Origin: a virus
Length of the DNA stretch: 64,000 nt
Direction: 5' to 3' (one strand)
UHGV virus genome: UHGV-0101699
The notes beneath the pieces are model-generated. The model searched no databases and was not told where the DNA came from. It worked only from the letters and a program-made list of their open reading frames with translations. Made by a program: the position numbers and the translations under genes. Positions 7,994 to 11,765 of the stretch are shown here, one piece after another; within the stretch, counting starts at the first letter, position 1; each line of letters begins with the position of its first letter.

Positions 7994-8213
7994 AGAAAGG
8001 CCTTTTTTTGAAAATTAGTCATCAGGGCCGTGCATTTCCCGCTTGTTTGTTTGCGACATCACCCTTGTCTTTGCGTTATGTCCCATCGTTGTCCGGTGCC
8101 AGTTTAGTCATGTTTGCGTCTATGGCTGTCTCGATGCCGCCTGGTCTCGAAGGGGGGACTTCGTCAATTCATGATATGATAGCTTTAATGGTATAGCTAT
8201 GAAGGAATCATAG

Positions 8214-8573
8214 ATGATGACCTTAAAATATTATTTACGGCACTGCTTATGGGGATGGTGTGGTTATGGCTATCTGATCTATTTTATAGTGCGCGATATG
8301 AATGACGGACTAATTTTTCCTGCCTATGTTCCTTATATGCCATTTGTGGTTACATATCTTGTTTTAAGCGCCGTCCTGTACCCATTCTCATATTATACTT
8401 CGGAGAAACTAGCCCTTAAGATAATGACCAAACCCTTTTGGGATCGTCACATTGGCGTGAATAGCGGTGTGTATGGCATGTTCATTATTTTGTGGTTATT
8501 TTGCCTGCCGCTTTCGGTACCGTTATTTCTCGTATATTTATGCATACGCGCAAAGACTAGATTAAGTGCCTAA
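8214..8573 (+). CDS. pore-forming-colicin immunity protein homologue (colicin E1/10-class Imm-like inner-membrane protein)
   Basis: 119 aa, 3-4 predicted TM helices; pattern TLKYYLRHCLWGWCGYGYLIYFIV...VLYPFSYYTSEKLALKIMTKPFWDRH parallels remembered ColE1 Imm [24 protein letters not shown]...[26 protein letters not shown]; AT-rich, plus-strand, own promoter region. Confidence 0.55.
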   Translation: MMTLKYYLRHCLWGWCGYGYLIYFIVRDMNDGLIFPAYVPYMPFVVTYLVLSAVLYPFSYYTSEKLALKIMTKPFWDRHIGVNSGVYGMFIILWLFCLPLSVPLFLVYLCIRAKTRLSA

Positions 8574-8637
8574 AAAATATGAAAATTATCGCAATATAAC
8601 CACGCTACGAATGAGAAAGGCATGGAGCTGCAGGTAA

Positions 8638-9048
8638 CTACGGGTTTGTTAATTTCTGGAAGGCTGCCGCGTATTTGGCGATGTCGCTCATTTTGGCTGG
8701 ATCACTGGCTGTTTTGTGTGCCTCTTTCGGGAAGATGGCCAGCAGACTATACACGTCCTGAAACTTGGCGTGCTGGGTATAAACGAGGGCGCGGTCGCTT
8801 GTACAGTTGAACCTGTTTCGGTGACTATTTCGTTCTTGCTTGGTGAATAAGAGATGAACGTGGTAAACACGAGAGGAAACTACAGAACCAGGTTCGGTAT
8901 AGGGGCCATCTTTGCCAAAAACGGCCGGATAAAAGCCGTTTTTAAAACTCACAAAGTCAGCAAGTAAGGAGGTCTTCAGATCAGGCATTACTCTGAAGAC
9001 CGGCTCCAAAAATTGGGCGTAACTATCACTGTTCCATGTGACTTTCAT
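8638..9048 (-). CDS. YafO-like toxin (ribosome-dependent mRNA interferase family) homologue
   Basis: 136 aa; LLADFVSFKNGFYPAVFGKDGPY / HVHLLF / ALVYTQHAKFQDVYSLLAIFPKEAHKTASD resemble remembered E. coli YafO LTADFISYKRDGVLPDTFGRDALY / HIHL / HLVYCQGAFDEQAWLLIAILKPEPHKLARD. Confidence 0.5.
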   Translation of the reverse strand: MKVTWNSDSYAQFLEPVFRVMPDLKTSLLADFVSFKNGFYPAVFGKDGPYTEPGSVVSSRVYHVHLLFTKQERNSHRNRFNCTSDRALVYTQHAKFQDVYSLLAIFPKEAHKTASDPAKMSDIAKYAAAFQKLTNP

Positions 9049-9057
9049 CGATCAGCC

Positions 9058-9675
9058 TTAATGGAAGGAGAAGTTTGCGAAGACGTCCTCATCAATGAGA
9101 CCTGTCTGCGATTCGATAACCTCAACTTCGTTAAAGCACTGATTTAAAATCATCAGGAGGTCAGAAACCGCCAGACGGTACTCAGTGATAGCATCACTCA
9201 AACGTTTCAGGTACGGATGTGGCAGTTCGGCGTCACGGATGAACTTGTTAACGAAGCCTTCTAAACCGCGTATGGACAGGTCAACGTTCTTCAAGTCCTC
9301 GTAACGGCTTTCACCGAAAGTATCGCGGATCTGTTCCGCACTGTAACCTGAAATGTTATGGGTCAACTGGACGTGTTTCGCCGTCAGCTCTGCGAGCCTT
9401 TGTTCAATATCCGCAAGTTGAGCTGCGGTGTCACTCTCAGCAACCGGAATACCTTCCGTTTGCGGCAGTCTGAACTCATGGGAATCTGCAAAACCGGGCC
9501 TCGTCGACCTTGTGATGCCGCCGAAACGAGGACGCATCTTAAATTTTGTGTGTACACGCTTCGGGAATGCTTTCGGAGTGCTATTTGCATTCGAAAAGCG
9601 TGAAGCGTTAGAAGTCACGGTAGCAAGAGCATTGCTAATGACATTCATATCTTCCAAGCAATTTTCTAAATGCAT
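9058..9675 (-). CDS. hypothetical 205-aa protein immediately upstream of and co-oriented with YafO-like gene (candidate non-canonical antitoxin/partner)
   Basis: ORF with AGAGG SD; 9-nt gap to downstream gene; no similarity to YafN/Phd noticed. Confidence 0.5.
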   Translation of the reverse strand: MHLENCLEDMNVISNALATVTSNASRFSNANSTPKAFPKRVHTKFKMRPRFGGITRSTRPGFADSHEFRLPQTEGIPVAESDTAAQLADIEQRLAELTAKHVQLTHNISGYSAEQIRDTFGESRYEDLKNVDLSIRGLEGFVNKFIRDAELPHPYLKRLSDAITEYRLAVSDLLMILNQCFNEVEVIESQTGLIDEDVFANFSFH

Positions 9676-9769
9676 AAAACCTCTTTACAGCTAAATGGCT
9701 CGTACCTAAGTGTACGCTCTGTTATCAAAAGCGACAAATCAAAACGGCCCCAAACGGAGCCGTATTGTA

Positions 9770-10015
9770 TTACAGAGTGCTTGCGAAAGCAGCAAATTCT
9801 GTGTAACCGCCGATTGGAACATCGTCCAAAAACACCTGGGGAATGGTTTCTACCGGCTTCCCAACCATGCCACTCAGCTTTTGCTTATCGATCCCGGCAG
9901 CGACAATATCGATGTACTGATATTCGCCATATCCATGCCCCTGCAGCTGCTTCGCCAGCTCAACTGCCCGCTTACAGAAGGAGCAATTATCTCGGCCATA
10001 AATCACACACTTCAT
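9770..10015 (-). CDS. nrdH: glutaredoxin/NrdH-like redoxin
   Basis: 81 aa; MKCVIYGRDNCSFCKRAVELAK (CxxC active site in thioredoxin-fold context). Confidence 0.7.
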   Translation of the reverse strand: MKCVIYGRDNCSFCKRAVELAKQLQGHGYGEYQYIDIVAAGIDKQKLSGMVGKPVETIPQVFLDDVPIGGYTEFAAFASTL

Positions 10016-10398
10016 TGTTTTGCCTCGTTAAATCTTTGTTTTAAGAGATATCCTTCAAGTGGCCAGATTTTAGCGACTGCGTTCTGGCGCGCAATCTTAC
10101 GACCGATCTCCGGATCAAAGTTTTCCGGGCTTGCACAAGCTGATTCACCGGTAACGATGAATCCGTTCTCCAACACCAGTACACAAAACGTCAGTAATTT
10201 AAGCGACTCAAGATCAGCGTCGCCAGCAACTGGCACCTCTTTGCCGGCATAGGTCCCACTTGCCAGGGCGCCAGATCTGCCATCAAAGGCCGTAAAATAA
10301 TGTTCGGCGCGGATAACGCTTTGGATACGTTCTGGGGTTACTCGCGCGGCCGTTTTTCCCTTGGCCACGATTTCTTTTTCGATTTCCATGTCAGTCAT
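10012..10398 (-). CDS. hypothetical conserved phage protein (128 aa)
   Basis: ORF with AAGGAAACAAAATG TIR; start overlaps downstream stop. Confidence 0.5.
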   Translation of the reverse strand: MTDMEIEKEIVAKGKTAARVTPERIQSVIRAEHYFTAFDGRSGALASGTYAGKEVPVAGDADLESLKLLTFCVLVLENGFIVTGESACASPENFDPEIGRKIARQNAVAKIWPLEGYLLKQRFNEAKQ

Positions 10399-10407
10399 TT
10401 TGTTTCC

Positions 10408-11184
10408 TTACAGATAAGCTTGAAGCGCCACTTTGCATAGCTCAGAGCGCACGCAATCTTCGGCCGTGAACTCAATGAGCCCTACTTGGCGAGATGGCTG
10501 GAACCGCTGCAGGGCGTCCTCAAGACCAGATTTAACATTACCCGGCAGGTCGCATTGCGTTACATCACCATTCACGATGACTGTTACGTTCTCACCCATC
10601 CGAGTTAGGAACATCTTCATTTGTGACGCCGTCACGTTCTGGGCCTCATCGAGGATGACCACAGCATTTTCGAACGTGCGACCGCGCATATATGCGAAAG
10701 GTGCGATCTCGACTTTGGCCACTTCTGGTTTGAGGCAGTATTCGAGAAATGAAGCGCCCAGGCGCTTCTGGAGCACATCGTAGACGGGACGAAAGAACGG
10801 AGCGAACTTCTCGGCCATATCGCCAGGCAGGAAGCCCAAATCCTCCTCTGCCTGCAGTACGGGGCGCGTAACGATAATTCGCTCTACTTCCTTATCGAGT
10901 AATCGCTGTGCCGCGACTGCCGTCGCCAGGAAGGTTTTACCGCAGCCGGCTTCGCCAGTGGCGAACGTCAGTGCTTTGCTATCAAGGGAGATAAGATAGT
11001 GGGCCTGGGCCTCATTGCGTGCCTCTATGGGGGAAGTGTCACGCTTCGGTTTTGGGGGCAGAGCAGGGGCGGCGGTGGCCAGCTCGTCTACGATAATAGT
11101 GTCGATCTCGTATCCGAGAATACGCGATTTTGACTTAAGCGCCTGGCGAGCTGCACGTCGCGCCTGTTTACGTTTGTTTCCCAT
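10408..11184 (-). CDS. phoH: PhoH-family ATPase
   Basis: Walker A GEAGCGKTFLA, Walker B ILDEAQN; ORF extends to 11280 but terminator hairpin at 11284-11301 and MGNKRKQARR start at 11184 favour shorter form. Confidence 0.8.
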   Translation of the reverse strand: MGNKRKQARRAARQALKSKSRILGYEIDTIIVDELATAAPALPPKPKRDTSPIEARNEAQAHYLISLDSKALTFATGEAGCGKTFLATAVAAQRLLDKEVERIIVTRPVLQAEEDLGFLPGDMAEKFAPFFRPVYDVLQKRLGASFLEYCLKPEVAKVEIAPFAYMRGRTFENAVVILDEAQNVTASQMKMFLTRMGENVTVIVNGDVTQCDLPGNVKSGLEDALQRFQPSRQVGLIEFTAEDCVRSELCKVALQAYL

Positions 11185-11283
11185 ATTGAGTCCTTTCAAG
11201 TGAGTAACCAGACGAACTATACCTAAAAGAGAACGCAAAAGTAAGTAAGTAGTTACATAACAACAAGAGCGCTTATGCAAGAA

Positions 11284-11301
11284 AAGGGGCCGAAGCCCCT
11301 T
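11284..11301. terminator. GC hairpin AAGGGGC-CGAA-GCCCCTT with flanking T-runs on both strands (terminator of tRNA transcript)
   Basis: read directly. Confidence 0.5.
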
Positions 11302-11456: not shown

Positions 11457-11543
11457 TGGCGGAGGATAATGGAATCGAACCATCATCGCTTTCGCAATGG
11501 GACGGTTTTCAAGACCGCTTGGGCGCCATGCCCTCTATCCTCC
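11457..11543 (-). tRNA. tRNA-Ser (anticodon UGA), type II with long variable arm
   Basis: reverse complement GGAGGAT...GCGGT-CTTGAAA-ACCGT...GATGG-TTCGATT-CCATT-ATCCTCC-G-CCA; acceptor, anticodon and T arms pair; CCA encoded. Confidence 0.65.
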
Positions 11544-11690: not shown

Positions 11691-11765
11691 TGGCGATGGT
11701 GGGTGGATTCGAACCACCGACCAGTTGATTAACAGTCAACCGCTCTACCACTGAGCTACACCATC
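11691..11765 (-). tRNA. tRNA-Asn (anticodon GUU)
   Basis: reverse complement GATGGTG-TAGCTCAGTGGTAGAGC-GGTTGACTGTTAATCAAC-TGGTC-GGTGGTTCGAATCCACC-CACCATC-GCCA. Confidence 0.75.

Follow-up and report, generated by a model that had tools for sequence, protein, structure and literature searches.

A candidate type II toxin-antitoxin cassette of a Klebsiella phage-plasmid pairing a YafO-family toxin with a long helical protein unlike YafN

Background

Among the toxins of toxin-antitoxin (TA) systems that belong to type II, YafO of E. coli is a translation-dependent mRNA interferase that cuts only translated mRNA and is neutralised by its upstream partner, and earlier work based on secondary structure placed it in the RelE superfamily (PMC2814082). 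In the survey of Leplae (2011), 25 YafO sequences were listed whose partners were Phd or unclassified "guilt-by-association" proteins and none of which was on a plasmid or phage, and YafO appeared as a small chromosome-bound family in which partner changes are rare (PMC3141249). An E. coli survey counted 13 partner clusters for 6 YafO_toxin clusters, only 8% known (PMC10790755), so that non-YafN partners have already been catalogued anonymously, and prophage surveys list a "YafO toxin" without an antitoxin (PMC10449497). The subject of this work is a two-gene locus in a stretch of 64,000 nucleotides of the virus genome UHGV-0101699 (the whole stretch is referred to below as the window), in which the gene of a 136-amino-acid (aa) YafO-family toxin is preceded by the gene of a 205-aa protein, here called the partner.

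We propose, with a probability of about 0.7, that the minus-strand region 8638-9737 forms a bicistronic type II TA cassette complete in itself, whose antitoxin, in the place of YafN, is an uncharacterised helical protein. The toxin already bears a name from annotation (in PGAP, "type II toxin-antitoxin system YafO family toxin"), and the 205-aa product is listed there as "hypothetical protein"; what is new here is the proposal that the partner represents a previously undescribed antitoxin family. In the literature searched, no paper describing or testing the partner family (phrog_13546) was found, and nothing specific on YafO in phage-plasmids, SSU5 or NetFlax.

Results

Pairing of partner and toxin across genomes

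The two open reading frames are located on the same strand and in the same frame, 9 nt apart (TAA GGC TGA TCG ATG). An earlier note on this DNA, made from the sequence alone, had given their coordinates, shared orientation, spacing and the 205-aa length of the upstream gene exactly as found here (Table 1). Directly after every partner homologue with a readable genomic context there is a gene of the Pfam family YafO_toxin (PF13957), and in the contexts read the partner family is found only, and always, directly before one clade of YafO toxins. These loci include the chromosomes of Brenneria goodwinii and Erwinia sp. JUb26 (between an AsnC regulator and HNH/SDR genes), a metagenomic contig, Pantoea sp. 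Morm (beside an integrase), Enterobacter bugandensis (locus L018) and a locus with a distant partner member of 173 aa. When one genome per species was scanned, five more species turned out to have a toxin of this clade, in each case preceded by the partner; the genera with the pair are Brenneria, Erwinia, Pantoea, Samsonia, Pectobacterium, Kluyvera and Enterobacter. The earlier note had proposed to look for conservation of the pair in relatives, and such conservation is evident: the pair is kept as a unit in at least eight distinct genomic contexts, and in PLSDB the partner is present in 317 plasmids and the toxin (at least 60% identity) in 314.

The partner is less identical than the toxin at every compared locus, the partner/toxin identities to the window pair being 69/77, 55/71, 51/62, 45/55, 43/55, 39/52 and 37/46%, and 41/46% in the Enterobacter locus L018. 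Both genes are under purifying selection, with dN/dS values against Kluyvera of about 0.16 (partner) and 0.10 (toxin), which are rough because dS is near saturation, and pN is higher in the partner than in the toxin in every comparison.

The kind of upstream gene follows the divergence of the toxin. Wherever the toxin is at least 45% identical to that of the window, the gene immediately before it encodes a partner-family protein of 170-217 aa, whereas toxins that are 31-39% identical have upstream a 97-100 aa gene of PF02604 (PhdYeFM/YafN) with a 4-nt overlap; the YafN-linked group includes chromosomal proteins of K. variicola and Pectobacteriaceae and E. coli itself. The two groups differ most in the N-terminal beta1-alpha1 region of the toxin (W/Y-N..Y..F[LF]xP[VT]F in the long-partner clades, RVFK..LIR.QL in the YafN-linked clades), a region that may contribute to partner specificity. 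The earlier note had suggested a hybrid with a swapped antitoxin; the swap holds at the level of whole clades, but it is not a recent hybrid formed in this phage-plasmid; partner and toxin form an old, co-diverging partnership.

The YafO-family toxin

The toxin matches PF13957 with E=3.8e-22 and 78.7 bits (gathering cut-off 25) over profile positions 4-101 of 101, and it is 36% identical to YafO of E. coli K-12 (NC_000913) over 110 aa (E=1e-17); it is also assigned to phrog_1651. The earlier note, whose proposal hinged on a significant YafO-family match, had named YafO homology along most of the 136 aa, which agrees with these values, and the matching segments that it named (LLADFVSFK..GKDGPY, HVHL and ALVYTQ...LLAIFP..AHK.A.D) correspond to aligned, conserved blocks. 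Against the NCBIfam equivalog model of E. coli YafO (NF007377) the toxin scores 60.9 bits, below the cut-off of 153, and by these scores it is a YafO-family member of a separate clade and not an ortholog of E. coli YafO.

A confident structural model predicts a RelE/HigB-like fold of the alpha/beta type found in the RelE superfamily, in agreement with the earlier assignment of YafO from secondary structure (PMC2814082); no solved structure of a YafO relative was detectable by sequence search. Six residues (K36, H63, H65, T83, Y90 and H111) do not vary among 35 sequences drawn from both clades and are kept in the window toxin; they are candidates for the active site, with a putative catalytic role. 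A match of the toxin to the PADLOC model PDC-M55B (E=0.013) was dismissed as noise.

The 205-aa partner

The only family assignment of the partner is PHROG 13546, annotated as "unknown function". No similarity to YafN was detected (BLASTP E=3) and there was no PF02604 match in Pfam, in line with the statement of the earlier note that the upstream protein does not resemble the YefM/Phd-like YafN. The partner gave no Pfam match above noise, no NCBIfam match, no PADLOC match and no significant PDB match by sequence or fold; a Pfam match to DUF2000 (E=0.047) and a PDB match to a NudE-like coiled coil (E=0.027) were rejected as noise, and Foldseek searches of PDB and BFVD returned generic helical bundles only, with E above 0.05. 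A word-indexed search of 5.8 billion proteins yielded 30 relatives, all from Enterobacterales, and an exhaustive search of 1.84 billion cluster representatives with a hidden Markov model of the partner yielded 12 matches, 8 of them below 1e-10. By these counts the partner belongs to a very narrow orphan family restricted to Enterobacterales.

The AlphaFold model of the partner (AF2; mean predicted local distance difference test score, pLDDT, 72.8) shows a four-part layout that agrees with the family alignment (Table 1). The N-terminal helix may pack on the helical bundle. The linker that follows is poorly conserved, with 10 K/R against 3 D/E residues and a pLDDT below 50. In the three-helix core the motifs RGLEG and EYR are invariant in the alignment, as are residues Y125, N130, R136, L138, E139, E165 and R167. 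The C-terminal tail, modelled at low pLDDT, contains 6 D/E and no K/R residues; D195 and F199 are invariant, and S189, T191, F202 and H205 are at least 90% conserved. Antitoxins of the RelB, Phd and YefM types have disordered toxin-binding regions, and by analogy with these we propose that the acidic tail is likely the toxin-binding, neutralising segment.

Inside the partner coding sequence there is also an imperfect 16-nt inverted repeat (window 9555-9602, 81% complementary, 16-nt loop), which falls where the start of the variable basic linker is encoded.

Operon signals

The terminator-like hairpin listed in Table 1, followed by a T-rich run that reaches about position 9734, lies between the cassette and the phoH-gp49-grxA genes upstream of it and sets them apart, and the same hairpin precedes the cassette in Kluyvera (L011). 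The candidate sigma-70 promoter has counterparts upstream of the partner in other loci, namely TTGTCG-17-TAAACT in Erwinia L006, TTGTCG-17-TACACT in L008, TTGTGG-17-TACACT in Pantoea L009 and TTGTTG-17-TACCCT in L018, the layout of -35, -10 and Shine-Dalgarno sequences being shared by loci of Erwinia, Pantoea and Enterobacter and by a metagenomic one; the Brenneria, Samsonia and Pectobacterium loci have a different conserved pair, TTGCAT-17-TAAAAT. The inverted repeat CGTAC-N6-GTACG, detected as a plus-strand stem and only weakly conserved in other loci, might speculatively be an operator. The Shine-Dalgarno sequence of the partner (AAGAGGTTTTATG) is conserved in L006, L008, L009, L011 and L018, and T(A/G)AGG is found at the same distance from the toxin ATG in 8 of 10 independent loci; the overlap of the partner stop with the toxin Shine-Dalgarno sequence points to translational coupling. 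Judged from these signals and from its distribution, the pair behaves like a mobile unit of two genes that carries a promoter-like element of its own and signals of coupled translation. A search for an RNA antitoxin gave no candidate, Rfam yielding no match with E up to 1 and the stretch 8500-9900 containing neither direct nor tandem repeats. A consensus scanner reported a single promoter site, inside the partner coding sequence, which is fewer than chance would give; that site was disregarded.

Table 1. Features of the proposed cassette (window positions)
Feature	Position	Strand	Description
Toxin gene	8638-9048	minus	136 aa, basic, pI 9.35; YafO-family; predicted RelE/HigB-like fold
Junction	9049-9060	minus	Partner stop overlaps toxin Shine-Dalgarno (TAAGG), 9 nt before toxin ATG
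Partner gene	9058-9675	minus	205 aa, acidic, pI 5.5; putative antitoxin, PHROG 13546
Partner residues 182-205	9061-9132	minus	Conserved acidic tail ..ESQTGLIDEDVFANFSFH; pI 4.05; predicted unstructured alone
Partner residues 77-181	9133-9447	minus	Conserved three-helix core, helices 78-108, 113-148, 154-181; pLDDT 88-97
Partner residues 31-76	9448-9585	minus	Variable-length basic linker; pI 11.7; indels; predicted disordered
Partner residues 1-30	9586-9675	minus	Conserved N-terminal amphipathic helix (6-27), M-R/H-LENCLEDM..ALATVTSNAS; block pLDDT 72-94
Partner Shine-Dalgarno	9680-9685	minus	AAGAGG, 4 nt before partner ATG
Inverted repeat	9701-9716		CGTAC-N6-GTACG; overlaps -10 and expected transcription start
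Candidate sigma-70 promoter	9709-9737	minus	-35 TTGTCG (9737-9732), 17-nt spacer, -10 TACACT (9714-9709)
Terminator-like hairpin	9744-9763	minus	8-bp stem, 6 G-C pairs, then TTTGATTTGT; just after grxA stop (9770)

Decayed copies

Three loci carry damaged copies of the pair. In Enterobacter bugandensis (L018 2501-2848) an internal deletion in the toxin removes the HxHL block and the 203-aa partner is intact, and in a second locus (L008 5607-6032) the toxin gene is cut short by an early stop next to a full-length partner; in Acerihabitans (L015 2695-3240) both genes are truncated. The loss of the toxin before the partner in the first two loci is as predicted by an antitoxin role of the partner.

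The element and the neighbouring genes

The earlier note had also assumed a phage-plasmid setting, and this is borne out: window positions 8000-11300 are 100% identical to pKPN20-2, a 108-kb IncFIB non-mobilizable plasmid of K. pneumoniae, and the region is 97-98% identical to entries deposited as Klebsiella phages (vB_KpnS_p4727, vB_Kpn_1825-KPC53 and pJN2-26). Within the SSU5 supercommunity of phage-plasmids, for whose shell genome TA systems have been reported, IncFIB elements of about 110 kb in Klebsiella make up the pKpn group (PMC7969092), and the element in the window is probably a Klebsiella phage-plasmid of this pKpn/SSU5 type.

On its strand the cassette is preceded by phoH, a Gp49-family gene and grxA, and downstream of it are a tyrosine-recombinase gene and a convergent gene resembling those for colicin E1 immunity. 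The last-named gene (8214-8573, plus strand, convergent with the toxin gene) encodes a 119-aa hydrophobic protein (PF03526 E=4.3e-6, phrog_22982) that is annotated as "colicin E1 family microcin immunity protein" in sister plasmids and does not appear in the pKPN20-2 gene table; no colicin gene is nearby. The phoH reading frame (10408-11280, minus strand) has 290 aa from a TTG start and 258 aa in the PGAP version, and of the two the 258-aa version is probably correct, since the first 30 residues of the longer one appear hydrophobic and do not resemble PhoH. Just upstream of phoH there are two tRNA genes on the minus strand, tRNA-Ser(tga) at 11457-11543 and tRNA-Asn(gtt) at 11691-11765, both within a stretch that has no annotated coding sequence in the plasmid annotation.

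Other long partners and the grxA-integrase slot

In sister phage-plasmids (L023 2483-3417, L028 1501-2432 and L030 1342-2273), the corresponding position between grxA and the integrase gene is taken by a different cassette, designated type B. Like the window cassette, here type A, it consists of a long non-YafN gene followed by a phrog_1651 YafO toxin gene (138 aa; e.g. NZ_CP140512, L023), and its genes are annotated in the same way, as "hypothetical protein" and "YafO family toxin". Toxin identity between the two types is about 30%, and the type B genes overlap by 10 nt, as opposed to the 9-nt gap in the window; the type B partners, of 174-175 aa in these three sister loci and 174-182 aa overall, form a family that is present in 257 plasmids, in this slot and elsewhere. 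Homology of the type A and type B partners is unsupported (hhalign E=0.23 with a single sequence; E=0.016 and a probability of 2.8% between profiles). An N-terminal signal peptide of the window partner was considered, given the hydrophobic N-termini of the type B and C partners, and was rejected because that segment is an acidic, polar and confidently modelled helix.

YafO toxins with about 30% identity to that of the window are encoded on 215 more plasmids, and the inspected cases among them have no YafN and a long unannotated upstream gene instead. Two more partners are a 178-aa phrog_8416 protein in pKpnU95 (L024) and a 165-aa phrog_22162 protein in a plasmid of Pseudomonas oryzihabitans, outside Enterobacterales (L026 1489-2435); both are long (165-178 aa), belong to no Pfam family and end 8 nt before the YafO toxin gene, and they differ from the window partner in PHROG family and in their C-terminal tails. 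The pKpnU95 partner has the RGLEG motif in common with the window partner and a marginal profile match to it (hhalign E=2.4e-4, probability 44%); homology of the Pseudomonas partner is unsupported (hhalign E=0.17). Taken by sequence, the YafO toxins of mobile elements thus appear generally to be accompanied by long non-YafN partners, whose homology to the partner in the window is marginal at most. The "YafO toxin alone" of Pseudomonas prophages (PMC10449497) may likewise have unrecognised partners, as the Pseudomonas plasmid locus illustrates.

Given the occurrence of a different cassette in the same slot, together with the spread of the type B partner family, the grxA-integrase slot looks like a hotspot at which TA or defence modules are exchanged. 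In the K. pneumoniae plasmid pKSB1_9A_3 (L029 901-2432), a type B cassette comes directly after two genes, one for the R subunit of a type I restriction endonuclease and one for a toxin of the RelE/ParE family, an arrangement that suggests a clustered TA or defence island.

Discussion

Proposed function of the cassette

In the TA cassette proposed here, the cassette's own promoter would drive both genes, and the overlap of stop codon and Shine-Dalgarno sequence would couple the translation of partner and toxin. The toxin would act as a ribosome-dependent mRNA endonuclease, like E. coli YafO, and the acidic partner would bind the basic toxin directly and neutralise it, most likely through the conserved acidic tail (residues 182-205) that is predicted to be disordered alone. 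The helical bundle of the partner might serve as a scaffold or oligomerisation domain, and the basic disordered linker is a candidate for a protease-sensitive or nucleic-acid-binding segment. If the element were lost or synthesis of the partner stopped, the toxin would be freed and translation arrested, so that the role of the pair on the phage-plasmid would be post-segregational stabilisation (selfish addiction), which we consider the most likely, default biological role.

We infer the antitoxin function of the partner from several lines of comparison: the obligate ordered pairing in unrelated contexts and the near 1:1 co-occurrence in plasmids; the clade split; the operon signals; purifying selection with a faster-diverging partner; charge complementarity of the two proteins; erosion of the toxin first in decayed loci; the family and predicted fold of the toxin; the lack of an RNA antitoxin candidate; and the precedent of E. 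coli YafO (PMC2814082). Several points weigh against this reading. Pfam and fold searches show no ribbon-helix-helix, helix-turn-helix (HTH), AbrB or Phd-like DNA-binding domain in the partner, which leaves classical autoregulation unsupported, and the 205 aa of the partner exceed the usual length of an antitoxin. The promoter was identified by visual inspection and from its conservation, a consensus scanner not reporting it at its thresholds; the erosion argument consists of three loci; and the dN/dS estimates are rough for the reason given above.

Alternative explanations

The alternative that survives best, although we hold it to be unlikely, is that the cassette is primarily an abortive-infection or anti-phage module, in which the large partner is a sensor that releases the YafO toxin upon infection by a competing phage and thereby protects the host population. 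The allelic diversity at the grxA-integrase slot leaves room for such a role: divergent YafO cassettes in one slot (type A in 317 plasmids, type B in 257) are typical of defence hotspots, and the one type B copy that adjoins genes of type I restriction and of a RelE/ParE toxin fits the same picture. The partner is also bigger than simple neutralisation needs, and phage-plasmids are known to carry TA-type defence such as CapRel (bioRxiv 10.1101/2025.09.12.675607). However, neither protein matches a defence model of PADLOC-DB v2 (the toxin match mentioned above being noise), Pfam and fold searches reveal no recognisable sensor domain in the partner, and the Erwinia chromosomal copies are located among metabolic genes and not in a defence island.

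A wider form of this idea, speculative and quite unlikely as a whole, is that the YafO toxins of mobile elements are ruled by fast-evolving long helical partners (phrog_13546, type B, phrog_8416 and phrog_22162) that are infection or stress sensors and antitoxins at once, the slot being a diversifying abortive-infection hotspot of SSU5-type phage-plasmids. If true, such a hotspot would enable the phage-plasmids of clinical Klebsiella and Enterobacter to keep out competing phages.

It is improbable, in our judgment, that the 205-aa protein is instead a co-factor, adaptor or regulator of the YafO-like protein, directing it to a substrate for instance, or that the YafO-like protein of this clade is non-toxic, the pair then being a two-subunit unit and not a TA system. 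The partner has no known antitoxin fold or domain and an unusual length for an antitoxin, and strict co-occurrence and co-divergence would be equally expected of any obligate heteromer. Type II conventions, on the other hand, are followed in the gene order, the stop/Shine-Dalgarno coupling, the combination of an acidic partner with a basic toxin and the faster evolution of the upstream gene. The toxin is lost first in decayed loci, the invariant His, Lys and Tyr residues that the window toxin has in common with the experimentally toxic E. coli YafO are kept, and the minimal Erwinia context offers no other protein or RNA antitoxin candidate.

That the pair serves the lytic programme of the phage (host translation shut-off or superinfection timing) and neither addiction nor defence is very improbable: both proteins belong to families of phage proteins (phrog_1651 and phrog_13546) and the pair adjoins the phage auxiliary genes phoH, gp49 and grxA, but it has its own promoter-like element with a terminator-like hairpin ahead, is also found in non-phage chromosomal contexts, and is replaceable by the other cassette type at the slot, hence shell and not core phage content (PMC7969092).

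Significance

In contrast to the picture of 2011, a clade of YafO toxins is found here on hundreds of phage-plasmids, always with a domain-less partner of 170-217 aa; annotation pipelines name the toxin only, and such loci consequently look like orphan toxins. Should the TA reading be confirmed, it would define a new antitoxin family, give a handle on the maintenance, in clinical Klebsiella, of phage-plasmids of about 110 kb, carbapenemase genes being present on some of them (as in the relative vB_Kpn_1825-KPC53), and offer a system for studying the neutralisation of a RelE-fold toxin by a helical protein outside the canonical types. In evolutionary terms the cassette is an incremental extension of the well-known principle of mix-and-match TA evolution.

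Comparison with known systems

The E. coli K-12 YafN-YafO system (dinB-yafN-yafO-yafP) also has a PF13957 toxin, 36% identical to that of the window, and the gene order is alike, with the antitoxin position first and the toxin second. The two systems differ in the upstream protein, a 97-aa Phd/YefM-type antitoxin in E. coli and an unrelated-looking 205-aa helical protein in the window; in the junction, a 2-4-nt gap or overlap in E. coli and a 9-nt gap with stop/Shine-Dalgarno overlap in the window; and in their setting, yafNO being embedded in the SOS dinB operon whereas the window cassette stands alone on a mobile element. The score of the window toxin below the equivalog cut-off for E. coli YafO is a further difference.

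HigB2 of V. cholerae (5mje) and HigB1 of M. tuberculosis (7nbu) have a sequence identity to the window toxin of only about 8%. The M. tuberculosis HigB1 system requires a SecB-like chaperone; unlike that system, the window cassette has no third conserved gene. HigBA loci are arranged with the toxin first and an HTH antitoxin (PMC2814082), whereas in the window cassette the partner comes first and has no HTH. The phd-doc system of the phage-plasmid P1 is likewise of type II, a persistent "plasmid-like" cargo that serves maintenance (PMC7969092); its toxin and antitoxin families (Doc/Fic kinase and Phd) are unrelated to the window pair, to which it is comparable as a functional analogue.

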